Below are positions 1,977 to 54,393 of a stretch of DNA of 64,000 bases, piece by piece. Location of the stretch: positions 8,827 to 72,826 of the forward strand of contig CAZBOB010000001.1 of assembly GCA_964492995.1 (NCBI GenBank), written 5' to 3'. The notes beneath the pieces were generated by a model that searched no databases, was not told where the DNA came from, and saw only the letters and a list, made by a program, of their open reading frames with translations. The position numbers and the translations under genes were made by a program. The stretch is from an uncultured Desulfobacteraceae bacterium (GTDB taxonomy: Bacteria > Desulfobacterota > Desulfobacteria > Desulfobacterales > UBA11574). Numbering within the stretch: the stretch's first letter is position 1; the number at the start of each line of letters is the position of its first letter.

Positions 1977-2137
1977 ACCTAAATCGAGCGATTTTTTACT
2001 CGATCTGCACCGATCTCTTGCGCATCAAGTATCCGCGAAAATCCTCGACATATCCACGGGTATGCCTGCGATTTTCGCGAACCTTTATGCATCAAGATCT
2101 CAGCACATCTCTTCGCAAAAAATCGCTCAACTTAGGT
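1977..2137 (+). repeat. Long-hairpin repeat, arm family A, copy A1 (ends ACCTAAATCGAGCG...CGCTCAACTTAGGT)
   Basis: About 160-bp imperfect palindrome, near-identical to 4555-4715 and to the reverse complement of 8261-8400. Carries the apical core AATCCTCGACATA...GTATGCCTGCG. Confidence 0.9.
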
Positions 2138-4231: not shown

Positions 4232-4554
4232 CCTTTTTAAAAAAATGATAAAAATTTTCTTTTACATATTATCAGGCATGGTATTGATAAGTTTTTATCA
4301 ATTATCTGCAAAAGTCAGGCCAAAATAGTTTTATATAGATTTATTAATATTAAATTAAATAGTTATCTCAAATATAAGAAGATCACATCTAATGATTTAA
4401 AAAATATTTATCTTAATTTTATGAAAATATTTACACAGTTTTGCTGTAATAATAGTGACATATAAACCAGAAATATATCGCAGGATTTTGCAGGAGGGAT
4501 TGACGGGGCATATGAAAGCCCCCAACTCGTGCAAGATTCCGGTAGGTTAATTAA

Positions 4555-4715
4555 ACCTAAATTGAGCGATTTTTTACTAGATCTGCACCGATCTCTTGCG
4601 CATCAAGGATCCGCGAAAATCCTCGACATATCCACGGGTATGCCTGCGGTTTTCGCGAACCCTTATGCATCAAGATCTCAGCACATCTCTTCGCAAAAAA
4701 TCGCTCAACTTAGGT
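4555..4715 (+). repeat. Long-hairpin repeat, arm family A, copy A2
   Basis: Near-identical to 1977-2137. The 20-bp terminal inverted ends are CCTAAATTGAGCGATTTTTT / AAAAAATCGCTCAACTTAGG. Confidence 0.9.
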
Positions 4716-4819
4716 TAAAATAACTTGAGCTTTTTTGTTTTAAATGTCATTCTCTTTTATCGATATTTTTGCAACCACCATACAAACGCAATCCAAACAA
4801 ACGGAAGCGGAGGTTTAAT

Positions 4820-5782: not shown

Positions 5783-6049
5783 GGAACTTAGGGGCTTCGC
5801 CCCGCCTGCCATTGCAAGGCACGAGCGGGCAGGCCCAATTGGAATAATGGAATGATGGAGTAATGGAATAATGGGTGAGCTTGCCCTGAACGAAGTTGAA
5901 GGGAAGGAGTTTTTTACAATTAAAATGGTTTATTTCTGTCCTTATCCCCAATATTCCAGCATTCCATTATTCCATTCTGATGACATAAATAGGTTTCCAT
6001 TAAAAATCATTTATTATCATAGAGTTGTAGAATTTCCGAGACGTTTAAT
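5783..6049 (+). repeat. GGAAT-rich repeat, family B, full copy B2
   Basis: Colinear with the reverse complement of 31379-31602, from GGAACTTAGGGGCTTCGCCCC to TTGTAGAATTTCCGAGACGTTTAAT. Carries an extra hairpin insert of about 31 nt (GCCTGCC...GGCAGGC) absent from the other copy. Confidence 0.9.
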
Positions 6050-8260: not shown

Positions 8261-8400
8261 ATTAAGTTGCTGAGATCTTGCATAAGGGTTCGCGAAAACC
8301 GTCCCGAAAAGACATCGGGATGGATATGTCGAGGATTTTCGCGGACCCTTGATGCGCAAAAGATCCGTGCAAATCGAGTAAAAAATCGCTCAATTTAGGT
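8261..8400 (-). repeat. Long-hairpin repeat, arm family A, copy A3 (truncated/diverged)
   Basis: Reverse complement of family A. One arm lacks about 23 nt, and the apical loop is partly replaced (CCGTCCCGAAAAGACATCGGGATGG). Confidence 0.85.
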
Positions 8401-12702: not shown

Positions 12703-12930
12703 TCGTAAACAAAATGGGAAAAATATTTTAGTAGACGACGGAGGTTTATCCCGCATTATCAAGCGGTGCTTCGCCCTTGATGCCTCGAATCTGAGGCATC
12801 CTCGACTTTCGCTCATTTAGGGTGTTACCCTATCTGATCCGGGAAAAAACCAAAAAAACCGTGGCATCAAAACGATAATCCAAGCTTTTCAGTCTTACAA
12901 GGATTAGATCCTGATCATAGACACTTACTG

Positions 12931-13071
12931 GTGTCCATCCATAAATGGTAGATTTTGGTTTCCGGCAAGGCCCGAGCGAGTTTTCAACCACAGGCATAGC
13001 GCGCTATTTCGAGGATTGAAAACGAGCGAGAACGCCGCCGGGGGCCGAAAGATGCCATTTATGGATGGACA
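12931..13071 (-). repeat. Long-hairpin repeat, arm family C, copy C1 (ends GTGTCCATCCATAAATGG...CCATTTATGGATGGACA)
   Basis: Imperfect palindrome of about 140 bp. It is the reverse complement of 29515-29656. Ends 5 nt from the acnA stop codon. Confidence 0.9.
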
Positions 13072-13076
13072 ACTGG

Positions 13077-25333: not shown

Positions 25334-28333
25334 TTACCAAACTTTTGGAATACCATTGACTCGTTTTACGGTCATGGTTACGGCGCCGAAGTCTTGCTCT
25401 ACTTTACCATAGAGTATGAACGGCCGGTTTTGTTCCAGAATGGCGCAAAATCGGCGATAGGCCTTGGGGAAAAAGGTGGTTTCCACCAGGCCGGTTTCAT
25501 CTTCGAAAGTCAGAAACTCCATGGGTTCGCCATGTTTGGTATGAACGACCTTGCCGGTAATCAACAGACCGGCAATGCGAACATGCCGGCCGATGAAGCG
25601 AGGTAAGTCCCTGGCCTTAACAATCTTCTGTTTTTTTAAAGCATCGGCGTACAACACCATGGGATGCCGGTCACACAAAAAGCCCAGGGCTGAAAATTCA
25701 TGCCGCAGACGCTCTGTCTCATTTTCAGAAGGAAATGACGGTTTGGGAACAGCTCTCCCCACATTAAACAAGTCCCCTGCCCTCGATCGGTGTGACCGTG
25801 ACTTTTGCCGGCAGGCCAGCTCCCACAACAATGAACTTCTATTCTCTTCCGGATGGAGCGAATCAAACGCGCCGGCGTGAATCAGAGAACGCGCCTCAGG
25901 GTCGTCGGGTTGAACCCGTTCAAGAAAATCGATGATGTCATGATACGGTTTCGATTTTCGTTCGGCAACAATACGTCTGCGCGTGTGGGTGCTCAAACCC
26001 TTGATGGATAACCATCCCACCCGCATGGCCCCCGCCCTGCCCTTCCAGCGGACATCACTTTTGTTTACGTCGGGAGGTAAAATTTCCACTCCCATGCGCC
26101 GGGCTTCGGACACGTAAGCGAATGTGCTGTAAAAACCACCCTGATTGCTGATGACCGCCGCCATAAACTGGGCCGGATAATGGGTCTTGAGATAGGCGGC
26201 CTGGAAAGAGACACGGGCATAGCTGGCACTGTGGGGCTTGCAGAAGGAATAGCCGCTAAAACTCATCATCATGTCCCAAACGGCATGGATTTGCTCGTGG
26301 GTAACGCCTCGTGCTTGTGCGCCGGCAATGAAACGCTCTTTATAGTGGCCCAATTTGCGGGCCTTATCCTTTTTGGACATGATTTTACGAAGGCCGTCCG
26401 CATGGGCGTGTGAAAAACCTGCCAGAGCAACGGCGGTTCTGGCAACATCCTCCTGATAGACCATGATGCCATAGGTCTCTTCAAGCACGTCTGCCAGCAA
26501 CGGATGAATCGGCTCCCATTTACCGCCATGCAGACGGCGAATATATTCGCGAATAAACTCATTGGCCGCCGGACGGATAATGCTGCTGTGAATCACCAGG
26601 TGCTCAAAATCACCGATCTTTGTTTTCTTTTGCAACAGTCGCATGGCCGGACTCTCGATGTAAAAGCAACCCATGGTATTTCCCCCGGCCACAGTTGCCT
26701 GTGTGGCCACATCGTCTTCCGGCTCCCAGTGATCTTCATCAAAGTCCGTGCCGTTGTCCCTCAAATTTGCAATGGCATCGCGGATAACCCCCAGACTGCG
26801 GTTGCCGAGAAGGTCAATTTTAACCAGACCCCTGTGTTCCGCGCCGTCTTTTTCCCACTGGATAATCGGAACCCCTTTGGGGGCGATTTCCACCGGCACA
26901 TAATTATAAAGAGGATCCGGAGTGATAACCACCCCCCCCGGATGAACAGAAAGATAGCGCGGGATACCGATAATGCGCCGGGCGGTGTGAATGATTTTCT
27001 GCCAGGGCTCCGGAAAATCGAATTCGCCAAGCTTGGGCAGTTGTTTGAGTTGGGATAATAGATCGTCATTCATATGAGCCTTACGCCAGAACCAGGGAAG
27101 ACGTTGGGTGACCCGGCCGATCTCCGGGTCAGTGAGTCCGAAGACCTTGGCCACTTCCCGTATGGCCATGCGCGGTTGAAAGGCAACGTGATTGCATACC
27201 AGCGCAGCGTGACCCTTGTACTGCTTTAATACGGAATGCAGAACCTCATCCCGTTCATCCCACGCAAAATCGATGTCTATGTCCGGAGGATCCGAGCGGC
27301 CGGGGTTCAGAAAACGCTCGAAATACAGGTTATGTTTGATCGGACAGACATTGGTAATCCCCAAACTGTAAGCCACCAGGGACGCCGCACCGCTTCCGCG
27401 ACCGCAGATGCGCGGACTGCGAGACACGATATCTTGAACCACAAGAAAATACGACAAAAATCCCATCTTTTCGATGATGCTCAGTTCATGTTCCAGGCGG
27501 TCCACAACGGTTTCGGGGAGATCGTCACCATACCTTTTTCGTGCCCCTTTATACGTAGCATCCCGCAGGAGATGCTTGGCGCTTTTCCCTTGTGAGTTGC
27601 GCCACGGCGGCAGAACCAGTCCGGAACAGGGCCCGGTAAATGTCAGCCGTTCCGCAATTTCCCGGCCGGCCCGAATCACATCCGGCCAAATGGCAAAACG
27701 TTCAGCATATTCCGATGCCGGCGCCAGCCATGCGTCAGACGGTGCCGCATCTTCTGGTGTTAACCGGGAAAGAGACGTATTACGGTCTATTGCCCGCAGC
27801 ATACGGTGGACTTTTAGGTCATCCGGGTCCAGGAAAAAACTTCCGGGTGTGGCCACAACCGGTACGCCAAGGTTTTTGGAGATCTTCCACAATTTAAAGG
27901 CCGTGCCATTGGGCCTGCGCGGCACCGCTCCAGCGATCGTTACACCGGCTTCATGCCACTCCGGTAAAAGCGCAGGGCTTTGTGTGAGAACGGCCAGTCC
28001 CCGGGCATGGTCGGGCACGGCGGACTTCAGATCAAATTCTTTATCGGAGTGACGGCGTGTAATCAGGCGGCAGAGGTTTCCGTATCCCTGCTCGTTCTCC
28101 ACCAGGCAAACCGCGCGACACCCGGATGCGGGATCTGTCAGTTCCGCACCCACAATGGGGGTAATGTTTTCACGTTCGCAACTCTTTAAAAAGGGCCACA
28201 GGCCGTAAAGATTGTCGGTATCCGTAAGGGCCAGTTGCGTGTACCCCCGCTGTTTGGCAACCGCGCAAATCCTTTCCGGCGAACACGTGCCCCACATCAA
28301 TGAATAATATGAACGGACGGTAAGAGGAATCAT
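25334..28333 (-). CDS. dnaE2: Error-prone DNA polymerase III alpha-like subunit
   Basis: 999 aa. PHP domain start (RSYYSLMWGT...LALTDTDNLYG) and Pol III alpha core (DIDIDF, HPGGVVI, FCKPHSASYA). Sits immediately downstream of imuB with a 4-nt overlap. Confidence 0.9.
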   Translation of the reverse strand: MIPLTVRSYYSLMWGTCSPERICAVAKQRGYTQLALTDTDNLYGLWPFLKSCERENITPIVGAELTDPASGCRAVCLVENEQGYGNLCRLITRRHSDKEFDLKSAVPDHARGLAVLTQSPALLPEWHEAGVTIAGAVPRRPNGTAFKLWKISKNLGVPVVATPGSFFLDPDDLKVHRMLRAIDRNTSLSRLTPEDAAPSDAWLAPASEYAERFAIWPDVIRAGREIAERLTFTGPCSGLVLPPWRNSQGKSAKHLLRDATYKGARKRYGDDLPETVVDRLEHELSIIEKMGFLSYFLVVQDIVSRSPRICGRGSGAASLVAYSLGITNVCPIKHNLYFERFLNPGRSDPPDIDIDFAWDERDEVLHSVLKQYKGHAALVCNHVAFQPRMAIREVAKVFGLTDPEIGRVTQRLPWFWRKAHMNDDLLSQLKQLPKLGEFDFPEPWQKIIHTARRIIGIPRYLSVHPGGVVITPDPLYNYVPVEIAPKGVPIIQWEKDGAEHRGLVKIDLLGNRSLGVIRDAIANLRDNGTDFDEDHWEPEDDVATQATVAGGNTMGCFYIESPAMRLLQKKTKIGDFEHLVIHSSIIRPAANEFIREYIRRLHGGKWEPIHPLLADVLEETYGIMVYQEDVARTAVALAGFSHAHADGLRKIMSKKDKARKLGHYKERFIAGAQARGVTHEQIHAVWDMMMSFSGYSFCKPHSASYARVSFQAAYLKTHYPAQFMAAVISNQGGFYSTFAYVSEARRMGVEILPPDVNKSDVRWKGRAGAMRVGWLSIKGLSTHTRRRIVAERKSKPYHDIIDFLERVQPDDPEARSLIHAGAFDSLHPEENRSSLLWELACRQKSRSHRSRAGDLFNVGRAVPKPSFPSENETERLRHEFSALGFLCDRHPMVLYADALKKQKIVKARDLPRFIGRHVRIAGLLITGKVVHTKHGEPMEFLTFEDETGLVETTFFPKAYRRFCAILEQNRPFILYGKVEQDFGAVTMTVKRVNGIPKVW

Positions 28334-29505
28334 TGGGACAGTGTCCTTCCCACACGAATTGCGTTGAAACCAAAACGATAGCGGATCGTATCGAGAGCAA
28401 AGATCAGGGTATCACTCATCTTGCTTTCTTTTTCATGTTCGGCAAAAAGCGCCATCTGTGCGGGGGGATAAGTCAGACGGTCGCAAATCAAGCGCAGATG
28501 CCGGATGCCGACCCGGCGTGTCCAGGCCCGTTCAAGCGCTCTCTTTGCCAGAACAAACAGGCGAAAATCATTGGCCGTGGCCGGATTGGCAACAGCCTGA
28601 CGGGCAACCCGCATGCCGTCGGAATAGTCGAGGAGAATCTTGATCCGTCTTGCTGTCAGCCGTGGCTTGCGTAAATCTGAACCGGCCCGCTCGGCCAGTC
28701 CATATAATGCGCCTTGCACCATCGCCACATGGTTGGTGTTATCAGCAAATGCATGATCTGCAACCACAACCGGCGGCTTCTGTCCCACAGGCAGAACCGG
28801 GGATGGGTCAATGCCGCGCACGGCATTGTACAAACTGCCACTGCGACTGCCGAACATAATATTCAGTTGTTCCATGGACAGATGGGCCACATGACCGGCA
28901 CGGGTTAAATTGAATTCCCGAAAACGTTTCAGGTCTTCCCCTTCGATACCGGGGATAAGATGGACCGGCACGGGTTTCAGAAAGTCTTGTTCTTCACCGG
29001 CTCCGATGACATATTCACCGGCCGGCTTGACCATGCGTGTTGCCACTTTGGCGATCAGTTTGTTGGGAGCCACCGACCAGATGGGATCGAAACCCATATC
29101 CGCCCGCAACGCCTTGCGAATGCGCCACGCCACGTCAGGCGGCGGGCCGAACAGTTTTCCCGTTTTGGTGGCATCTACAAATAAATGTCCATTATGGTCG
29201 GTCATTTCAATCAACGGCGAAAAAGGCAGGGCATGTTTAACGAGCCGGGTCATTGCACGTTCGTAGCGGGCAGGATGGGGTGGTAATACAACGGCATCCC
29301 GGCAACAGCCAAGCGCCCGTCCCAGGGTCATGCCTTTACGCACGCCATTTTGATACGATTCTTCACTCATGTCATACACCGCCGCCCGCGCCTTGCCCCC
29401 CGGGGCAATGATCACCGGACGTTCCCGCAGCCGACTGTCCACCAGTCGTTCCACAGCCACGGCAAAATCGGCCACATTTATATGGATGATTGAACGTTCA
29501 CGCAT
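28330..29505 (-). CDS. imuB: ImuB-like Y-family polymerase homolog
   Basis: IIHINVADFAVAVERL...RPVIIAP is a Y-family N-terminus, and the gene sits in the canonical position upstream of dnaE2. At 391 aa it seems shorter than the ImuB proteins I recall. Confidence 0.75.
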   Translation of the reverse strand: MRERSIIHINVADFAVAVERLVDSRLRERPVIIAPGGKARAAVYDMSEESYQNGVRKGMTLGRALGCCRDAVVLPPHPARYERAMTRLVKHALPFSPLIEMTDHNGHLFVDATKTGKLFGPPPDVAWRIRKALRADMGFDPIWSVAPNKLIAKVATRMVKPAGEYVIGAGEEQDFLKPVPVHLIPGIEGEDLKRFREFNLTRAGHVAHLSMEQLNIMFGSRSGSLYNAVRGIDPSPVLPVGQKPPVVVADHAFADNTNHVAMVQGALYGLAERAGSDLRKPRLTARRIKILLDYSDGMRVARQAVANPATANDFRLFVLAKRALERAWTRRVGIRHLRLICDRLTYPPAQMALFAEHEKESKMSDTLIFALDTIRYRFGFNAIRVGRTLSQ

Positions 29506-29514
29506 ATCAAGTTA

Positions 29515-29656
29515 GTGTCCATCCATAAACGGCATCTTTCGGCCCCCGGCAGCGTTCTCGCTCGTTTTCAATCCTCGAAATAGCGCGCTATGCCTGCGGT
29601 TGAAAACTCGCTCGGGCCTTGCCGGAAACCAAAATCTACCATTTCTGGATGGACAC
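29515..29656 (+). repeat. Long-hairpin repeat, arm family C, copy C2
   Basis: Reverse complement of 12931-13071. Apical core TTCAATCCTCGAAATAGCGCGCTATGCCTGCGGTTGAA. Begins 9 nt from the imuB start codon. Confidence 0.9.
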
Positions 29657-29763
29657 TAGTTCGCTTAGCTCATCCCACTATATAGCGGGAGAATGTTGGA
29701 ATATTGGAACACTGGCCCCAGTGAAATAGAAAAAAGTTCCAGAAGTATTCGGATAAAAAATTC

Positions 29764-30606
29764 CTACACGATCAAGTTTTGCTCCTTGAGCAGCTCTACC
29801 ATCCTCTGGGCGTTTTCCGGCGCCTGGGCGCGGACATGATTGTTGAAAAAAATGATGCCCCTGCGAGCCCGTTTACTCATGGGTTCAATTTTATTTTGGA
29901 TCCATTCGTGCAGTTCATCGTCGGAATAATTGTAATCAAATTGACGCTGCATGTTCCCCGAACGCCAGCCTTTGGCATTGCGACCGTGAAAGCGCACATA
30001 AAACAGATCCGGGTGGGTTACTATGTCCAAGGCCGGAAACAGGCCCGGCAGATCCGGTTCGTCGACGCTCACCAGGGTAACCCGGCGACGTTCCAATTCG
30101 GCAAACACACGATCATTAGCCCAGGACCGATGGCGGAACTCTATTGCCAGAGGCAGGCCGTCAAGTTTGTCGAGCAAGGCTGCCAGGTATTTGCGGTTGG
30201 GCGGCGTTCGGTGAAACCCGGGGGGCAGCTGGATCAACACGGCGATTAATTGCCCGGTCTGAATTAGCGGCGCCATACCCTCCCGGTAGTTAACCGCATG
30301 GTCCGGCCAGTTTTGGGTGTCGATTTCGTGAGTTAGGGTGCGAGTCAATTTGGCAGCGAATAAAAATTCCTGTGGAACTTGCCGGCGATGACGCTCAATG
30401 GCTTCAGCCCTGGGCATTTGATACCAGGTGTAGTTAAGTTCGGTGATGGGAAACTGCCGGGCATACAGAGACAACATGTTCCCCGACTTTGTGCCGGACG
30501 GGTAAAATCCCGCTTCGACCCACTCTGTATATGAAAAGCCGCTGGTGCCCACAAACAGACGACAGGCGTTGGGGGCTCGTTGCTCTTTAGTAATTATAGT
30601 GGCCAT
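29764..30606 (-). CDS. DUF72 (UPF0759) family protein
   Basis: 280 aa. The N-terminus VGTSGFSYTEWVEAGFYP, followed by FPITELNYTWYQMP and later FRHRSW, are the signature blocks of DUF72 as I recall them. Confidence 0.75.
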   Translation of the reverse strand: MATIITKEQRAPNACRLFVGTSGFSYTEWVEAGFYPSGTKSGNMLSLYARQFPITELNYTWYQMPRAEAIERHRRQVPQEFLFAAKLTRTLTHEIDTQNWPDHAVNYREGMAPLIQTGQLIAVLIQLPPGFHRTPPNRKYLAALLDKLDGLPLAIEFRHRSWANDRVFAELERRRVTLVSVDEPDLPGLFPALDIVTHPDLFYVRFHGRNAKGWRSGNMQRQFDYNYSDDELHEWIQNKIEPMSKRARRGIIFFNNHVRAQAPENAQRMVELLKEQNLIV

Positions 30607-30637
30607 ATTCTACCCCGAACAAGCCCAAACCAAACAG

Positions 30638-30672
30638 GATTGAAAATTGAAGATTGAAGATTGAATAATCGA
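30638..30672. repeat. Tandem heptamer array (GATTGAA AATTGAA GATTGAA GATTGAA TAATCGA)
   Basis: Read directly from the sequence. Lies 32-66 nt upstream of the DUF72 start, in the lexA-DUF72 spacer. Confidence 0.8.
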
Positions 30673-30720
30673 GAAACCATATCAATATTTCATCAGGTTT
30701 TCCCCTTAAATATTCAATAG

Positions 30721-31362
30721 TCAATCGTCAATAGACAATTTCTCGGGTCCTCTCTGGACACCGATCACCTTGCCCTGGACCAGGACCTGGTTGAAATTGT
30801 AATGAACCGGCCTGTAAGCAGGATTTTCGGGACGCAGTTCAATCTGTTTTTCCCTGAGAAAAAAGCGCTTGACCGTTGCTTCTTCCTGATAGATCAGCGC
30901 AACCACAATTTCACCATTCTCAGCAAACTGGCGCGGCTCGCAAATAACCAGATCCCCATCTAAAATGGCCGCATCCTTCATGGAATCGCCGGTTACCCTG
31001 AGTGCAAACAGATTTGAACCCCGGTATATTGCCGCATCAACCACAACGCTGCCGCCCCACTCCTGCTGCGCGTACAAGGGTAATCCGGCGGCAATGTTCC
31101 CCACGATCGGCACCTCCCGCCATCGCATGATGCCGGCCGTTTCCCACGCGCGATTGAGCAGGTGGATCGTGCGGCTATAACGCCCGTCACGCTTGAGAAT
31201 TCCTTTTTTCTCAAGCAGTTTTACAAGCTGAGATATCGCCGCATGGCTTACGCCCATATCGGCCGCCGCCTGCCGCAAGCTGGGCGCTTTTCCGGTTCGG
31301 GTTATCTCACGTTCCAGGTAACTGAAAAACCGTCGCTGTTTTTGTGTTAATTCAGACTGCAT
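30721..31362 (-). CDS. lexA: LexA repressor
   Basis: N-terminal winged HTH (LRQAAADMGVSHAAISQLVKLLEKKGIL), an Ala-Gly cleavage site (NIAAGLP), and the S24 peptidase Ser/Lys pair (GDSM ... VKRF). AGGAGG lies 8 nt upstream. Confidence 0.9.
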   Translation of the reverse strand: MQSELTQKQRRFFSYLEREITRTGKAPSLRQAAADMGVSHAAISQLVKLLEKKGILKRDGRYSRTIHLLNRAWETAGIMRWREVPIVGNIAAGLPLYAQQEWGGSVVVDAAIYRGSNLFALRVTGDSMKDAAILDGDLVICEPRQFAENGEIVVALIYQEEATVKRFFLREKQIELRPENPAYRPVHYNFNQVLVQGKVIGVQRGPEKLSIDD

Positions 31363-38934: not shown

Positions 38935-39512
38935 AATAGCTCAGTCAACCATAGGTTTACTAAATAGAAATTTTGGTTAATGTAACCCAAAAGATTGCAA
39001 ATGAATGGATAACGGCTATACTTGCGCAATCGGTATTATTTTTGGATAGTTCTGGTAATCTGAAATAGATCGCCTACTGAAAAAGTGTGGATACTATATA
39101 TCCAGTGAAAAAAGCTAAAAGTACCAATACCTCCAACTTTATCCTGGCGCCATAAATCCCTTAATGCATTTGATACGTCATGAGTGCCACACTTGGATAA
39201 ATCCTCATTTTTAAGGCTGGATTGAGGCAGAAAAAAATCAACATATTATGGTCTTAGTCTTAACTGGTCAGCCGACTTTTGTGACGCCTGCCTTGTTGAT
39301 GAATGAGGGCGATCCTGCAAGTGGTAAATATTGGGGATTCAAATCATCACCACAATTCCTATTAAATCCGCTATGAATCATAGAATAAGAAAAGAATGAG
39401 GGTCGGGCCACGGTAACAATCTATAATACCAGCAAAAAAGGACTGAAACAGGCCCTAAAATCGTCTTAAACCACTCTTTTTGGCCCCAAAAATGATCTTT
39501 TAAGCTATATAG

Positions 39513-39560
39513 TGTATGACCGAAAACCCTGATTTTTCGGTCATACAATTTATTTTTTTA
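39513..39560 (+). terminator. Strong Rho-independent terminator with no intact upstream gene
   Basis: Perfect 14-bp stem TGTATGACCGAAAA / TTTTCGGTCATACA with a 7-nt loop, followed by ATTTATTTTTTT. Confidence 0.7.
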
Positions 39561-45153: not shown

Positions 45154-45516
45154 GGGTAAACGCATTTGAATCCCAATACAGGGAGAACGCTCCACGATGG
45201 CGTGTATCTCTTTCCAACCGACTGAAACTGAAAAAGATGAACATCGAACATCGAACGTCCAACATCGAACGTTGAATGGGAAAAGATGAAGAAACAGAAA
45301 TAGCTGTTGAATGTTCGGTATTGGATATTTGTTTTTCATTCGATTTTAGAATAATTTGAGGAGCGGAGCGACATCATTATTCGACGTTGGACGTTCGATG
45401 TTCGATGTTGGACGTTCATCTTTAGTTCTTTTCTCAGGTAAACGCATTTGAATCCCAATACAGGAAGAACGCTCCATGCCGTCGCTACGCTAGACCGAAA
45501 TCAAATGCGATTACCC
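45154..45516. repeat. Composite element: 41-bp direct repeats flanking two inverted arrays of six 7-bp repeats
   Basis: DR1 at 45154-45194 and DR2 at 45436-45476 differ by 2 mismatches. The left array at 45235-45276 reads AGATGAA CATCGAA CATCGAA CGTCCAA CATCGAA CGTTGAA. The right array at 45380-45421 is the inverted equivalent, after a 103-bp AT-rich spacer. 45501-45516 (TCAAATGCGATTACCC) is an inverted partner of the DR 5' end. Confidence 0.85.
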
Positions 45517-45570
45517 TGATTCTATAATTTTATTGACTTTTTTGTTATTTTTTAATTAGTTAAATATTTA

Positions 45571-45757
45571 TGTTCAGGTGCTCGTATGAGTTTAATAGGG
45601 AACCCCGTGAAATTCGGGGACGGGCCCGCCGCTGTAACCCCGCCTTTTTCTGATTACAGTTAGAAAAAGGAACCCTTTTTGCCTTAGTGTGCCACTGTTC
45701 GTGTATGGATGGGAAGGCCGCTAAAAGGGCGGGGAAGTCAGAAGACCTGTCTGAACC
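45571..45757 (+). promoter_or_regulatory. Cobalamin riboswitch 1 (upstream of btuFCD)
   Basis: AATAGGGAACCCCGTGAAATTCGGGGACGGGCCCGCCGCTGTA ... GCCACTG ... GGGAAGGC ... B12 box AGTCAGAAGACCTGTC. P1 pairs GTTCAG with CTGAAC. Confidence 0.85.
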
Positions 45758-45814
45758 TAAAAGCCAAACTATCGTGAGCTGAGTTTTGCTTTAAAAATCT
45801 TGAGGATAAAAAGG

Positions 45815-47782: not shown

Positions 47783-48577
47783 ATGGCGATAGATGTTAAA
47801 AATCTGAATTATTATTATGGAGATTTTCCGGCTTTGAAAAATGTTACCTTTTCTGTGGCAACGGGTAATTTTTTCATCATCATAGGTCCAAACGGTTCCG
47901 GAAAAACCACATTACTGAAAGTGATGGCCGGGATCTTGAAATCTCAAGCCGATCAACTGGAAATACTGAACCGTCCTGTTGATCACTATAGCCGCAAGGC
48001 TCTGGCACGAACCATTGCTTTTGTCCCTCAGATGATACCGGTCGATTTCCCTTTTACGGTAACCGAGATTGTACTTATGGGTCGATCCCCCTATCTCGGC
48101 ATGCTGGGACTCGAACAAGAAAAAGATTTGAAAATTGCAACGCAAGCGCTCGCTTTTACCGGCCTAGAACATCTGGCACATCGGAAATTAGACCAGTTAA
48201 GCGGCGGGGAACAGCAGCGGGTTTTTGTTGCAAAAGCCATTTGTCAGGAACCCGAAATTATTCTTCTGGATGAGCCCACTGCTTCTCTGGACCTTGCCCA
48301 CCAGGTCCGGCTCATGGATTTAATGGAAAAATTAAAAAATGAAAGGGGAATTACAGTGGTTATGGTTTCCCATGACGTAAATCTGGCGGCAATGTACGGC
48401 GATCGATTACTTTTACTCAATAAGGGGGAAATGGTGCGGTTGGGGGATCCAAGAGAGGTTCTCACATTCCAAACGTTGGAACAAGTTTATGGCTGCACAC
48501 TTTTGGTGGATGAGAGCCCTCTCGGTAAAACTCCGCGAGTGACTCCGGTACCCCGAAAATTTATAAATAGTGCCTGA
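47783..48577 (+). CDS. btuD: ABC-transporter ATPase
   Basis: Walker A GPNGSGKTT, ABC signature LSGGEQQRV, Walker B ILLDEPTASLD. Confidence 0.85.
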   Translation: MAIDVKNLNYYYGDFPALKNVTFSVATGNFFIIIGPNGSGKTTLLKVMAGILKSQADQLEILNRPVDHYSRKALARTIAFVPQMIPVDFPFTVTEIVLMGRSPYLGMLGLEQEKDLKIATQALAFTGLEHLAHRKLDQLSGGEQQRVFVAKAICQEPEIILLDEPTASLDLAHQVRLMDLMEKLKNERGITVVMVSHDVNLAAMYGDRLLLLNKGEMVRLGDPREVLTFQTLEQVYGCTLLVDESPLGKTPRVTPVPRKFINSA

Positions 48578-48710
48578 ACGAAAACTGTCTTTTCCGCCAA
48601 TATCTGCGTCAGACTCAAATTTTAATCCTCGAAATACTACCCGTATTCCTGTGGTTAAAATTTTCGTCTTCCTTGATCTTAACGAAAAATCCTAGTTTTC
48701 GCTCGGGCAC
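48570..48710 (+). repeat. Long-hairpin repeat, arm family D (ends GTGCCTGAACGAAAACT...AGTTTTCGCTCGGGCAC)
   Basis: Imperfect palindrome of about 140 bp with the apical core TTTAATCCTCGAAATACTACCCGTATTCCTGTGGTTAAA. Its first 8 nt include the btuD stop codon. Confidence 0.85.
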
Positions 48711-48800
48711 TAAATAAAAGCATGTAATGACGGAAGGTTAAAAATGATCTTATGAACCGATTTCCAAGTAATTTTATAGGAAGAGAGGGTTTAGGTAGAA

Positions 48801-51600: not shown

Positions 51601-51726
51601 CGTTGCTCATCTATTATATCGACAATTATTATGAAAACTTAAGGAACGAGTGAGTTGGCTTCGCTCAACTTAGATAATATTTTTCTTGACGTAGCTGTCT
51701 TATTTAGTCTAAATAGTCTTTGTTTT

Positions 51727-51955
51727 GTTCAGATGCTCGCTTTGAGCTTAATAGGGAACCCCGTTTTAATCGGGGACGGGCCCGCCGCTGTAGTCGGGGA
51801 CGAACGCCGTTTAAATCCACTGGAAATTGTCATAGTCTCTGTTATTTGTCTTAACCAATAACAAAACGACCAATGACACCGGGTGTGTTATTCACATCAG
51901 GTCCGGGAAGGTACGGTTAGTAGAAAGATCCGAGAGTCAGAAGACCTGTCTGAAC
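51727..51955 (+). promoter_or_regulatory. Cobalamin riboswitch 2 (paralog of riboswitch 1)
   Basis: Same P1 (GTTCAG/CTGAAC) and the same core AATAGGGAACCCCGTTTTAATCGGGGACGGGCCCGCCGCTGTA. B12 box AGTCAGAAGACCTGTC. The peripheral insert is longer. Confidence 0.8.
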
Positions 51956-52012
51956 TTAAAGGCGAAATCATCGTGGCTGAGATTCGCCGCAAGATCTTGA
52001 GGATAAAAAAGG

Positions 52013-52058
52013 GAAATCCCCGGATCGATTTTAAATCGGTCCGGGGATTTTTTTTGGT
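52013..52058 (+). terminator. Riboswitch 2 expression-platform terminator
   Basis: AAATCCCCGGATCGATTT / AAATCGGTCCGGGGATTT long stem followed by TTTTTT. Confidence 0.75.
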
Positions 52059-52061
52059 TTT

Positions 52062-52205
52062 TTTAAAGGGAAGGAAGTGTGAATCTTCCGCTGCCCCGCA
52101 ACTGTGATCGCGACGAAAGCAGCATTATACCACTGCCCTGTTTGCAAACAGGATGGGAAGGCGCTGCCGGTAGGATGAACGAAAGCCAGGAGACCTGGAC
52201 GAAAC
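52062..52205 (+). promoter_or_regulatory. Cobalamin riboswitch 3 (classical compact type) with an SD-sequestering helix
   Basis: AAAGGGAAGGAAGTGTGAATCTTCCGCTGCCCCGCAACTGTGA ... CCACTG ... GGGAAGGC ... B12 box AGCCAGGAGACCTGG. Downstream, CCTTCCTC-GAG-GGAGGAAAGG can pair across the AGGAGG of the receptor gene. Confidence 0.8.
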
Positions 52206-52248
52206 CTAAACTTTCACCACCTTCCTCGAGGGAGGAAAGGAGGTTTTT

Positions 52249-54393
52249 ATGAAACGTTTTATTTTGTTCTTTTTCTTGGCTGTTTTTTTCTGTAGCTCTT
52301 TATTGGTTGTGTCATCAGTAAACAGGGCATTGGCCCAAAATGGTGAGGAAAAAATAGTGAAGCTGGATGAGATTGTGGTGACAGCTCCTCGCAAAACAAT
52401 GGTGATCGATACCCCTGCATCGATTTCGGTGATTACCGCTCAGGAGCTGGAGGAGCAAGGGATCAAGAATATAGGGGATGCCATTGTCAGGATTCCGGGC
52501 GCCTATGATGACGGCGCATCAAAATACTATTTCAGCATGAGAGGAACACGCAGTTCCTCCACTGGAGGTCCACTCGTGTTGATCGACGGGGTCCCGCAAA
52601 ATATGGGTATGTCTGACTACAACTACTTTGAGACGATTCCGGTGTCGGATATTGATCGCATTGAGATCCTTCGCTCTCCTGCTTCAACGGTCTTTGGCGC
52701 TGACTCAGCCCGTGGAGTGATCAGCATTATCACCAAAAAAGGCAAGAAGGATCAGCCCTTCAGCGTTAAGGCCAAGACATCTTACGGGTCCTGGCAAACC
52801 TCCGACACATATGCGACCTTATCCGGCGCCGTGGATAACTGGGATTTTTTCGTAAATGGCACCTTCATGGATACGGAAGGCTACGTACACGATGACCAGA
52901 GGCGTGCCGCAGGCCGCTTCAAAGGAGGCTATAGTTTTTCGGATCATGCCAGACTGGGAATTAATCTCGGGTATACTGATAACGATTACGAGATGGTGAG
53001 AGGCAAAAACAAATATGCCCTCGAAATAGATCGCCGGGCTGATGAATTTAAAGAGAAACCGACTGCGGAAAAGACATCGTATAACGAAAATGAACAGGAT
53101 GTTTCCAGCTATGCGCTTGATTTCAGCTACAAAAACAGCGGATTATTCTTGGATTCTCTTGCCGCGGTGACACTTTTTGATAAAGAAGCTAAGTATAACT
53201 GTTATCAGTATACTAAACCCAAAAACGTTTATAATGATGACCGCGATCAGAATAGATATAAATTTGATCTCTCCGGAGGATATAACTTCGGCGAGGATTT
53301 CTTTAAGTATACCCCCGTATTGGGATTCAACGTAGAAAAAACTGCGCTTGAACAGCGCCGCGATTATTTTAACGACCCGGTTGGCAAAGCCGCCAGCAAA
53401 AGGAAGGCAGATATTGACTATGATCAGGAAAAGTTCGGTATATTCTTGCAGAATCAGCTGCTCTTCGGCGATAACTGGGAGCTGAATTTAGGTGTCAGAT
53501 GGGATAAGGTAACCTATGATGTCAAAAATAAAAATGGTGACAGTATCGATAAAGATCACACTGAATATTCCTGGTCTGTTGCGCCTGCATATCACTGGAA
53601 TGATCGGGCCACCACATACGCATCGGTCGGCAAATCATACTGGTACCCGGCAGCCTATTATTACCAGGCGGCTATGGAGAAGATGAATCCGGAAAACCTC
53701 CCCCAGGATTTGGAACCGGAGAGCAGCATGGTTTACGAAATAGGCCATAAGCATAGCCTGGCAAGATGGGCAAACATTAATCTTACACTCTTTTGGATGG
53801 ATTATGAGGATAAATTTGCTATATTCTATGATGAGACACAGACATATGCGGGATACAAAAACGTTGGCGACGCAGAGCACAAGGGGATTGAACTGGAGAT
53901 GGATGGAAGGATCTGCCGTTGGTTCGGCTACAGGCTGTCCGGTACCTATATGGAGGCTGAATGGACCAGTGGCAGGGAGCGAGTTTATACCTGGGAAACC
54001 CTGACAAGCAAGGACTTTCGCAACCTTGATGGAAAGGAGCTGAACAGGATTTCCAATTACAAATATATGGTCGGGTTCGATTTTTATCCCATAAGAAATC
54101 TGAAGTGCAACCTCGACATTAATGGAACCGGGCCCTATTGGGTGGATTATTTGAACCGCATCGAGTATGGCGCAAAGACCACGTTTGATATGGGCATCCG
54201 TTACGAGTTAAAAAAGTGGTCCTTCTGGGCCCTGGGAAAAAACATCTTCGATAGGGAGATAGAATCGGTCTACAATTCAAGTGGTGAACTAAATTCAACT
54301 TCGGCTGAAATAGAGCGGAACGGCAAGTATGCCAATCTTTACTATCCCAGGAATGGCCAGTATTTTGAGGTTGGTGTCACATACCACTTTTAA
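52249..54393 (+). CDS. TonB-dependent outer-membrane receptor (BtuB-like by context)
   Basis: Signal peptide, TonB-box-like DEIVVTA, plug motifs (IEILRSPASTVFGADSARGVISIITKKG), and a 22-strand-size barrel ending ...VGVTYHF. Preceded by B12 riboswitches. Confidence 0.85.
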   Translation: MKRFILFFFLAVFFCSSLLVVSSVNRALAQNGEEKIVKLDEIVVTAPRKTMVIDTPASISVITAQELEEQGIKNIGDAIVRIPGAYDDGASKYYFSMRGTRSSSTGGPLVLIDGVPQNMGMSDYNYFETIPVSDIDRIEILRSPASTVFGADSARGVISIITKKGKKDQPFSVKAKTSYGSWQTSDTYATLSGAVDNWDFFVNGTFMDTEGYVHDDQRRAAGRFKGGYSFSDHARLGINLGYTDNDYEMVRGKNKYALEIDRRADEFKEKPTAEKTSYNENEQDVSSYALDFSYKNSGLFLDSLAAVTLFDKEAKYNCYQYTKPKNVYNDDRDQNRYKFDLSGGYNFGEDFFKYTPVLGFNVEKTALEQRRDYFNDPVGKAASKRKADIDYDQEKFGIFLQNQLLFGDNWELNLGVRWDKVTYDVKNKNGDSIDKDHTEYSWSVAPAYHWNDRATTYASVGKSYWYPAAYYYQAAMEKMNPENLPQDLEPESSMVYEIGHKHSLARWANINLTLFWMDYEDKFAIFYDETQTYAGYKNVGDAEHKGIELEMDGRICRWFGYRLSGTYMEAEWTSGRERVYTWETLTSKDFRNLDGKELNRISNYKYMVGFDFYPIRNLKCNLDINGTGPYWVDYLNRIEYGAKTTFDMGIRYELKKWSFWALGKNIFDREIESVYNSSGELNSTSAEIERNGKYANLYYPRNGQYFEVGVTYHF

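Follow-up and report, generated by a model that had tools for sequence, protein, structure and literature searches.

Palindromic miniature transposons of Desulfobacterota with different termini share a conserved, strand-specific structured interior

A 64,000-nucleotide stretch of DNA from an uncultured Desulfobacteraceae bacterium (contig CAZBOB010000001.1, positions 8,827 to 72,826; the whole stretch is called the window below) contains six long imperfect palindromes, all of them members of a Desulfobacterota superfamily of palindromic MITEs (miniature inverted-repeat transposable elements). This classification is firm. The elements are small and non-coding (142–161 bp, with no conserved open reading frame (ORF)), and we regard them as non-autonomous transposons mobilised in trans because they have inverted-repeat ends, target-site duplications (TSDs) of family-specific length, and insertion polymorphism. 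Different transposon ends here have in common an interior that is structured, strand-specific, and unusually well conserved. The reading that we favour, with about as much confidence as doubt, is that transposases mobilise these MITEs, whose interior would serve as a recognition module in single-stranded form, probably as RNA.

The palindromes had been noticed by a model that was given only the DNA letters and a list of ORFs (the sequence-only reading), and all six are present at the coordinates that it reported. The strand written out in that reading is designated S and its reverse complement R. The RNA folding of each of the six copies gave z values of -4 to -15 against shuffled sequence, and the core pattern ATCCTCGAnATA-N4-10-TATnCCTGnGnTT had four exact matches in the window against none in 100 shuffles. 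A covariance model of the core, R1, was searched with cmsearch. The idea that all six palindromes share one apex holds for five of them, whose intact ~50-nt cores are recovered by R1 with E values of 1e-11 to 3e-17, and fails for the copy A3, whose apex is broken.

Copy A1 (1977–2137, minus strand) is a 161-bp MITE with ACCT-type ends, flanked by ATT at 1974–1976 and 2138–2140. It lies 54 nt 3′ of an IMPDH/GMP-reductase gene identified by Pfam, and its RNA fold reaches -88.7 kcal/mol on the minus strand versus -53.8 on the plus strand. The core of A1 (2032–2082, minus strand; R1 score 50.9 bits, E 9.8e-12) consists of the closing stem, AATC as a variant of AACC, a 3x2 loop, the apical hairpin, and GGAUU. 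Copy A2 (4555–4715, minus strand) is of the same type and length, with TAA at 4552–4554 and 4716–4718, an RNA fold of -93.9 kcal/mol on the minus strand versus -62.0 on the plus strand, and a core at 4610–4660 on the minus strand (56.4 bits, E 2.4e-13). The third ACCT-type copy, A3 (8261–8400, plus strand), is decayed: ~24 nt of its 5′ arm are lost, and the 12 nt CAGGCATACCCG of the 5′ half of the apex are replaced by the 19-nt mini-hairpin TCCCGAAAAGACATCGGGA (8302–8320), so that R1 skips the apical helix and scores 16.1 bits (E 0.16).

Copy C1 (12931–13071, plus strand) has AGTGYC-type ends that are slightly shortened (GTGTCC...GGACA), with ACTG at 12927–12930 and 13072–13075. An aconitase gene (Pfam) has its stop codon 5 nt from the end of this element, whose core lies at 12977–13025 (54.4 bits, E 9.7e-13). 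Copy C2 (29514–29657, minus strand) is a 144-bp AGTGTC-type MITE with AGTT at 29510–29513 and 29658–29661. Its core (29562–29610, minus strand; 54.3 bits, E 1e-12) reads 5'-CGAGUUUUCAACC GCA GGCAUAG-CGCG-CUAUUUC GA GG A UUGAAAACGA-3' on the R strand. The element sits between a DUF72 gene and imuB-dnaE2 and ends 8 nt upstream of the imuB start; its host is a lexA - DUF72 - imuB - dnaE2 cassette of the SOS mutagenesis type (25334–31362, minus strand). Copy D (48569–48711, minus strand) is a 143-bp AGTGCC-type MITE with AAAT at 48565–48568 and 48712–48715; its core (48616–48665) scores 69.9 bits on the minus (R) strand versus 10.4 bits on the plus (S) strand. Within this element (48569–48577) are the two final sense codons and the TGA stop (48575–48577) of an ABC-ATPase ORF (47783–48577), and its insertion therefore changed the C-terminus of the ABC-ATPase.

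The boundaries of the elements were set by aligning copies from one metagenome-assembled genome (MAG), which gave sharp edges and short direct repeats. There are four terminal families with inverted ends of ~12–20 nt, namely GAGCCAGTTTCA (the GAGCC family), GAGACCTTTGAA (the GAGACC family), AGTGYC (window C and D), and ACCTAAATTGAG (the ACCT family, window A). For the counting of TSDs, the termini were set by pattern and exact flank repeats were compared with those of shuffled flanks. The GAGCC family showed a TSD of 4 bp (exact repeats in 13/22 cases, 0.74 expected), the GAGACC family one of 5 bp (14/31, 0.46 expected), the AGTGYC family one of 4 bp, mostly ANNT (15/31, 1.34 expected), and the ACCT family one of 3 bp (8/12, 1.68 expected); the length is constant within each family. 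In addition, the left and right ends of the GAGCC type can be told apart by a conserved C.C at position 7.

Evidence of insertion polymorphism came from related loci on other genomes and metagenome contigs, which carry L-numbers here; relatives of the C2 site were anchored on the neighbouring imuB. L131 reads ATTT[39-bp AGTG-type hairpin]ATTT, while L133 and L134 have a single ATTT, which makes a filled/empty pair. The C2 site of the window (29506–29513 and 29658–29664) reads gcgAACT[MITE]AACTtgat-ATG. In L128, L132, and L138 (84–93% ImuB identity), the same site is gcgAACTAACTtgat, that is, free of the element with both AACT copies kept. On this evidence, the gcgAACTAACTtgat alleles are not what would be expected of a never-occupied site; they look like exact removal at the element ends, by excision or by deletion across the hairpin base. 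The history of this site is complex since L136, L137, L129, and L180 carry the element with different junctions. Taken together, the terminal inverted repeats, the family-specific TSDs of 3, 4, or 5 bp, and the insertion polymorphism overturn the earlier view of these palindromes as the opposite of a MITE.

The arms of the families had also been described as unrelated, which is not the case. In the GAGCC, GAGACC, AGTGCC, and AGTGTC consensuses, the inner ~100 nt are 80–88% identical and the outer 20 nt 50–65%, and this shared body folds end to end as one hairpin inside the differing termini. C and D even have their termini in common (AGTGYC...GRCACT), and C, D, and families of other genomes share two arm motifs, CAAGG on the 5′ side and RACGCAG on the 3′ side. 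The ACCT family is more distant (56–61% identity), with a weaker arm correspondence in window family A (AAGG and GATGCGCAAG), yet it retains the core and recognisable arm motifs.

The same interior is thus carried by termini with three TSD lengths, and the same termini are also found with other interiors. ACCT-type termini with ATT on both flanks enclose a rearranged interior without the core at 2400–2610; L096 is another case of known termini with a different interior. The interior at 2400–2610 contains fragments like the arm motifs and a TCCCG...CGGGAC mini-hairpin. A 39-bp mini-hairpin with AGTG-type termini and no core lies at 39511–39549 and has the same architecture as L131 1941–1979 and L015 1255–1293. 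All of these 39-bp hairpins consist only of AGTG-type ends and a 5-nt loop, and they resemble products of a deletion between two TTTTCGTT repeats in the full element.

Several copies bear further small inserts. GC-rich mini-hairpins of ~17–32 nt, such as TCCCG-N-CGGGA and CCCCAGTA...TACGGGG, were seen in or beside the core in A3 (8302–8320), L129, L035, L063, L117, L026, and L016, in two cases directly after AACCG; possibly another tiny insert targets the apex preferentially. As a window-wide repeat, the TCCCG...CGGGA mini-hairpin is not enriched (2 matches versus 0.95 expected). GAGACC-type copies of four assemblies (L013, L037, L088, and L100) bear a conserved 24-nt insert, AGCGCTAAAGCTTCACTGCGTGCC, that separates GAGGAT from the 3′ arm; these copies form a subfamily of 164–166 bp.

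The best conserved part of the body is the apex, which on the R strand reads 5'-AACC [RCA] GGMAUAN-loop-N'UAUKUC [GA] GG (A) UU-3'. It folds into two short helices with a 3x2 internal loop, RCA/GA, between them and a bulged A, so that the helices of the core are the closing stem, AACC/GG(A)UU, and the 7-bp apical GGMAUAN/N'UAUKUC. Covariation was examined in 108 distinct core sequences: 96% of the cells are paired, 224 cells show double changes versus 48 in column shuffles, and slid controls are only 19–51% paired. The covariation suspected in the small apical stem and in the stem closing the core is therefore well supported. When the structure is extended to 30 pairs, reaching ~30 nt into each arm, 87.6% of it is paired; it shows 418 double changes versus 130, and slid controls reach 22–46%. 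Variant cores recovered by the model add a further compensatory change, UACC...GGAUA. It should be noted that the invariance of the 21 positions of the core pattern is built in because the sequences were selected by this exact pattern; the covarying positions are the free ones.

A sample with less of this bias comprised the 25 elements found by their termini that were left once one exact-core copy per core-selected locus had been removed; five of the 25 are the window's own. In this small sample, core positions agree with the family consensus at an identity of 0.89 and arm positions at 0.78, in line with the proposal of a superfamily that evolves most slowly at its apex. A second, partly conserved purine-rich loop region lies ~15 bp lower in the stem, in which CAAGG opposes RACGCAG as a pseudo-symmetric A.C/A.G/G-C/G.A/C.A loop.

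Known motifs did not account for the apex. By inspection, a K-turn does not fit the register that covariation sets for the 3x2 loop, the likeness of this loop to the 11-nt tetraloop receptor is topological only, and a CsrA site was rejected since only one of the three GGA motifs is universal. When the whole window was searched with Rfam 15, no family overlapped the elements at the gathering score or at E<=1; at E<=10 the cores gave only a sub-threshold match to CRISPR-DR9 (CRISPR denoting short palindromic repeats that are clustered and regularly interspaced), with 13.5 bits against a gathering score of 45.

The two strands of the elements are not equivalent. With RNA parameters, the R strand folds better in 106/110 copies with a mean gain of -15.8 kcal/mol, and in 107/110 copies when the test was repeated; the strand written out in the sequence-only reading is thus not the better-folding one. 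The oppositions that interrupt the arms of 114 elements are biased in the same direction, G.A on R numbering 672 versus 67 C.T, and G.T on R 464 versus 220 A.C. On the evidence of sequence, such a bias is the signature of constraint on one single-stranded form, and it fits RNA or DNA alike. A structured RNA or single-stranded DNA (ssDNA), which had been among the earlier suggestions, still explains the strand-biased G.U and G.A oppositions best. For four of the six copies in the window, the strand that folds better runs antisense to the gene upstream.

Most copies (117/133) are intergenic, and 66 have a gene end no more than 100 nt upstream. Their orientation shows no bias with respect to GC skew (51:56). 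The neighbouring genes did not reveal a partner. All-against-all clustering of 2651 ORFs from 120 loci, as a search for a linked protein or transposase, returned only housekeeping families and no multi-copy ORF, and in the 8-kb blocks around the copies there was neither a RAYT-like gene (repetitive extragenic palindrome (REP)-associated tyrosine transposase) nor another recurrent neighbour gene.

The distribution of the core was determined in species-representative genomes (596 Gb) by a scan with 21 specified bases, for which we estimate ~2 chance matches. The exact core is present in at least 120 genome blocks, from ~84 assemblies among the matches listed. Nearly all carriers among these matches are labelled Desulfobacterales, Desulfobacteraceae, Thermodesulfobacteriota, or 'Deltaproteobacteria'; they include Desulfosarcina, Desulfocapsa, Desulfatitalea, and Desulfatiglandaceae, and the closed genomes CP070694.1, OY771548.1, and OY759590.1. 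A few matches are labelled Rokubacteria, Bacteroidales, Actinomycetota, Planctomycetota, Nitrospiraceae, Methanosarcinales, or Selenomonas, and mis-binning is likely for these because most of them bear typical Desulfobacterota-type arms. The match from a rumen Negativicutes MAG (Selenomonas sp.; L078 2318–2402) is an 85-nt hairpin with the core, CAAGG/AACGCAG, and AGTG-like ends, with a sugar-binding protein gene on one side and a small unannotated ORF (2578–2967) on the other; it reflects either cross-phylum transfer or mis-binning. Among viral sequences the core occurs in one contig only, and the plasmid and phage collections searched gave no core match. The uncultured organism of the window itself occurs in several Joint Genome Institute (JGI) metagenomes.

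The superfamily is widespread among sulfate-reducing Desulfobacterota and apparently undescribed so far. A full-text search of the literature for the core string and for accounts of Desulfobacteraceae MITEs or repeats found no description of the core or of such repeats, and the genome paper of D. autotrophicum merely counts repeats.

In the favoured reading, transposases encoded elsewhere would cut or copy the elements and insert them in trans. Most simply, these would be DDE enzymes whose target cuts are staggered by 3, 4, or 5 bp, with more than one enzyme specificity. The body would be constrained as a single-stranded hairpin of the R strand, and a conserved host factor, as opposed to the transposases, would recognise the apex. 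A host factor is the more likely reader because the apex, carried by at least three kinds of termini, is common to several terminal families and ~84 species, and the reading of the apex in a single-stranded R-strand hairpin is suggested by the strong strand bias of the non-Watson–Crick oppositions. As the acting molecule we prefer RNA, a preference that falls somewhat short of even confidence: host transcription through the element would produce a hairpin that may serve as a processing, stability, or protein-binding module, making insertions tolerable or useful. The Correia and enterobacterial repetitive intergenic consensus (ERIC) elements, palindromic MITEs that act as RNA hairpins on the processing and stability of transcripts, provide a precedent, and RNA is further favoured because copies lie near gene ends and the folding asymmetry is three times larger under RNA energies.

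Several observations weigh against this reading, in particular against a role as RNA. With DNA parameters the R strand also folds better, in 108/110 copies with a mean gain of -5.5 kcal/mol. The orientation of the copies is unbiased, S:R being 36:30 downstream of gene ends and 25:19 upstream of starts, and neither a sigma-70 promoter nor an intrinsic terminator pattern was found in the elements. The position of four copies 3′ of a gene in sense orientation is correct for the window, where the identities of the genes were checked, and does not extend to the family; the unbiased orientation and the lack of a terminator pattern do not support sense-oriented elements that act in cis at the 3′ ends of genes. 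A search of 1.1 Mb around the copies found no autonomous element with the same ends; there, the inverted-end pairs 600–3500 bp apart are MITE pairs or chance matches, and the class of the transposase is consequently deduced from inverted repeats and TSDs only. The core is not strictly needed for insertion since core-less 39-bp minis with flank repeats exist. Finally, most copies were gathered by the exact-core pattern, a bias that inflates the apparent invariance of the core, and the bias-reduced conservation sample is small (n=25).

The main alternative to RNA as the acting form is single-stranded DNA, which we rate as a minority possibility to be taken seriously because the polarity is intrinsic and context-independent, there is no promoter, and no selection of orientation follows insertion. 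Spelled out, this alternative, itself unlikely in our estimate, holds that the hairpin body is needed in cis for mobilisation, with the R strand as a strand-specific transposition intermediate whose apex might be bound by primase, RNA polymerase, a PriA-type priming factor, as at plasmid single-strand origins, or a protecting or processing factor. It would accommodate a strand bias that is independent of gene orientation and GC skew, and the distinguishable left and right ends given by the C.C of GAGCC-type termini; the same apex on termini with 3-, 4-, and 5-bp TSDs would again point to a host factor over a transposase. Moreover, G.A and G.T are the most tolerated mismatches in DNA too, in line with the result obtained with DNA parameters. 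However, the core-less minis with flank repeats also count against a need for the body in cis, the asymmetry is three times greater under RNA than under DNA energies, and we know of no transposition pathway with fixed TSDs and inverted-repeat ends that uses a free single-stranded hairpin intermediate.

A broader possibility, which we also consider unlikely, is that the ~100-nt body is a functional strand-specific nucleic-acid module read by a conserved host or defence factor and repeatedly fitted with the termini of different transposases. Candidate roles for such a module are a priming or processing site on an ssDNA intermediate, a site for an RNase or RNA-binding protein, and a CRISPR-repeat-like decoy.

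An immobile structured RNA of the host, such as a 3′-untranslated-region stabiliser, a terminator, or a small RNA gene, would be in keeping with the strong covariation, with the many copies just downstream of genes, and with the four of six window copies that stand sense-oriented behind genes. It is nevertheless improbable, and the flank duplications largely refute it. TSDs and insertion polymorphism, several copies per 64 kb, the unbiased orientation, the missing promoter and terminator patterns, and the lack of an Rfam match at the gathering score or at E<=1 all speak against it, and the better-folding strand is the antisense one in most window copies.

Equally improbable is a functionless core that marks the deletion junction of a parent insertion sequence with long inverted ends, having a ribosome-binding site and start on one side and the last codons and stop on the other; the core would then look conserved only because MITEs were repeatedly re-derived from this parent. 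The R-strand CAGGAAUAC-AUG/UUG does resemble a ribosome-binding site and start codon, and ...UAU UUC GAG GAU UAA/UGA reads as codons with a stop in D- and C-type copies. But the two halves base-pair and covary (pairs 19–35 and 23–31), the putative stop is absent from A-type and many other closing stems (e.g., GGAUUUUCGC and GGAUUGGACG), the start codons in the loop are not conserved, and no solo half-cores were found beside ORFs in 1.1 Mb.

The central position of the core and its presence in several terminal families, which makes a host factor plausible, could also suggest a duplex DNA site for a bending protein similar to integration host factor (IHF) or HU that brings the short transposon ends together, as has been proposed for Correia elements. 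We consider this very improbable. The IHF consensus WATCAANNNNTTR is absent from both strands of every family consensus, and a duplex site would not be expected to have exactly the non-palindromic bases conserved, its flanking stems covarying, and its mismatches strand-biased.

Still less can be said for the possibility that the elements mimic CRISPR repeats, with a hairpin followed by a GAGGAUUGAAA handle acting as an RNA decoy or substrate for Cas5d/Cas6-type proteins. The likeness starts from the weak CRISPR-DR9 match (13.5 bits, E=1), which covers CGAGGAUUGAAA; this stretch, the 3′ core half and closing stem of C-type copies, equals the 3′ end of DR9 or type I-B/I-C CRISPR repeats, and the 5′ GUUUUCAACC resembles their GUUGCAAACC start in the DR9 class. 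The CRISPR3 repeat of G. metallireducens ends in CGAGGATTGAAAC (PMC2700814), and the R strand of C2, GTTTTCAACC...GAGGATTGAAAAC, resembles at both ends the type 3 repeat of T. thermophilus, GTTGCAAACC...GAGGATTGAAAC (PMC12102369). The score is nonetheless far under the gathering score of 45, the conserved 5′ half is left unexplained, and no CRISPR arrays were found in the loci. The handle ATTGAAA(C/G) is present in C-type and some GAGCC-type copies; elsewhere the sequence that follows GGAUU is variable and shows covariation with the 5′ arm (A-type GGAUUUUCGCG, D-type GGAUUAAAAU), and a Cas handle is therefore not conserved.

The least probable explanation is the earlier suggestion of an element like REPs or REPINs (REP doublets forming hairpins) mobilised by a RAYT transposase of the HUH Y1 type: although the copies are palindromic, intergenic, and abundant, and Y1 transposases (IS200/IS605, RAYT) recognise strand-specific hairpins, there is no consistent GTAG/CGTC head at the hairpin foot, conservation peaks at the apex and is lowest at the ends, which is the reverse of a REPIN, no small protein or RAYT-like gene recurs beside the copies, and TSDs are present, whereas Y1 enzymes, to our knowledge, do not make TSDs of fixed length.

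Some further candidates were tried and rejected as well. A small conserved ORF in the element is contradicted by non-conserved start codons in the loop and a non-conserved stop. An integron attC site has RYYYAAC / GTTRRRY boxes at its hairpin base and no TSD, whereas the AAC-like helix here (AACC/GGAUU) is beside the apex, ~55 bp from the base, and TSDs are present. An IS200/IS605-derived palindrome-associated transposable element (PATE), which has two subterminal hairpins, inserts 3′ of a fixed tetranucleotide, and makes no TSD, does not agree with a single end-to-end hairpin and variable flank repeats duplicated on both sides, and a small RNA gene does not agree with the absence of a promoter pattern, the lack of orientation bias, and the presence of TSDs.

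The window contains other structured or repetitive features. Three cobalamin riboswitch aptamers on the plus strand (45559–45768, 51714–51967, and 52031–52207; 83–97 bits) are its only Rfam passes, and the last two stand in tandem upstream of the ORF 52249–54393. Directly upstream of the first riboswitch, at 45233–45423, ~100 nt are enclosed by two arrays in inverted orientation, ~45 nt each and 84–97% complementary, which are built of short tandem units (AACATCG / AACGTCC type) and bear no relation to the core. Meanwhile, the small hairpin CGCCTGCCATTGCAAGGCACGAGCGGGCAGG adjoins inverted pentamer arrays of the GGAAT/ATTCC type at 5803–5975 and 29680–29705. Modules of CGCCTGCCATTGCAAGGCACGAGCGGGCAGG and pentamers recur by the C2 site, upstream of imuB, in L128, L130, L132, and L138, and because they recur in related metagenome contigs, they represent another kind of dispersed repeat.

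The elements are frequent (six per 64-kb window) in widespread sediment sulfate reducers, and several core matches sit at true contig ends, where the copies may contribute to assembly breaks. Insertions lie within a few bases of start or stop codons, as with C2, 8 nt from the imuB start, and D, which supplies a stop. Recognising the elements improves annotation and may explain strain-level differences in expression. If the body is a module read by a host or defence factor, the apex would be selected across transposon families and a whole phylum, and if the ssDNA version is true, short elements with inverted repeats and TSDs would move via a strand-specific hairpin intermediate. The superfamily offers a testable case for asking to what end the non-terminal parts of bacterial MITEs are under selection, and whether a host factor reads them as RNA or ssDNA.

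Among known systems, CRISPR repeats of the ...GAGGATTGAAAC class (CRISPR-DR9; type I-B/I-C) share with the present elements a hairpin followed by (C)GAGGAUUGAAA and, in C-type copies, the 5' GUU..AACC start, but no arrays occur in the loci of the window superfamily, and its handle is not conserved across families. The REP/REPIN–RAYT system likewise combines abundant intergenic palindromes with strand-specific hairpin recognition; a REPIN, however, has two REPs of 20–40 nt each and conserved ends with a variable spacer, in contrast to one long hairpin with a conserved apex, TSDs, and no GTAG/CGTC head. Plasmid single-strand origins of the ssoA type and phage priming hairpins are long imperfect, strand- and orientation-specific hairpins with conserved motifs in or close to the apex that host enzymes read. 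They are single-copy signals on rolling-circle replicons, whereas the window superfamily consists of dispersed chromosomal repeats with TSDs, and a similarity in sequence is not known.

Further parallels are found among palindromic MITEs. ERIC elements, also called intergenic repeat units (IRU), of Enterobacteria and Vibrio are intergenic, MITE-like imperfect palindromes of 127 bp with the central inverted repeat best conserved, and they form an RNA hairpin when co-transcribed. The likeness lies in an imperfect palindrome of similar size that spans the whole element, with no evident relationship in sequence; the differences are the other host phylum and, in the window superfamily, one body with several unrelated termini, TSDs of 3, 4, and 5 bp, and a marked strand bias. 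The Correia elements of Neisseria (Correia repeat enclosed elements (CREE), also known as Neisseria miniature insertion sequences (NEMIS)) are palindromic MITEs of 100–160 bp with inverted-repeat ends, a TSD, and a central site for a host factor. They have a TA duplication, an IHF site, and conserved ends, whereas the window superfamily has variable TSDs of 3–5 bp and no IHF consensus. The hairpin RNA of Correia elements is processed by RNase III, and in this respect they serve as the model for a possible action of the present elements on transcripts.

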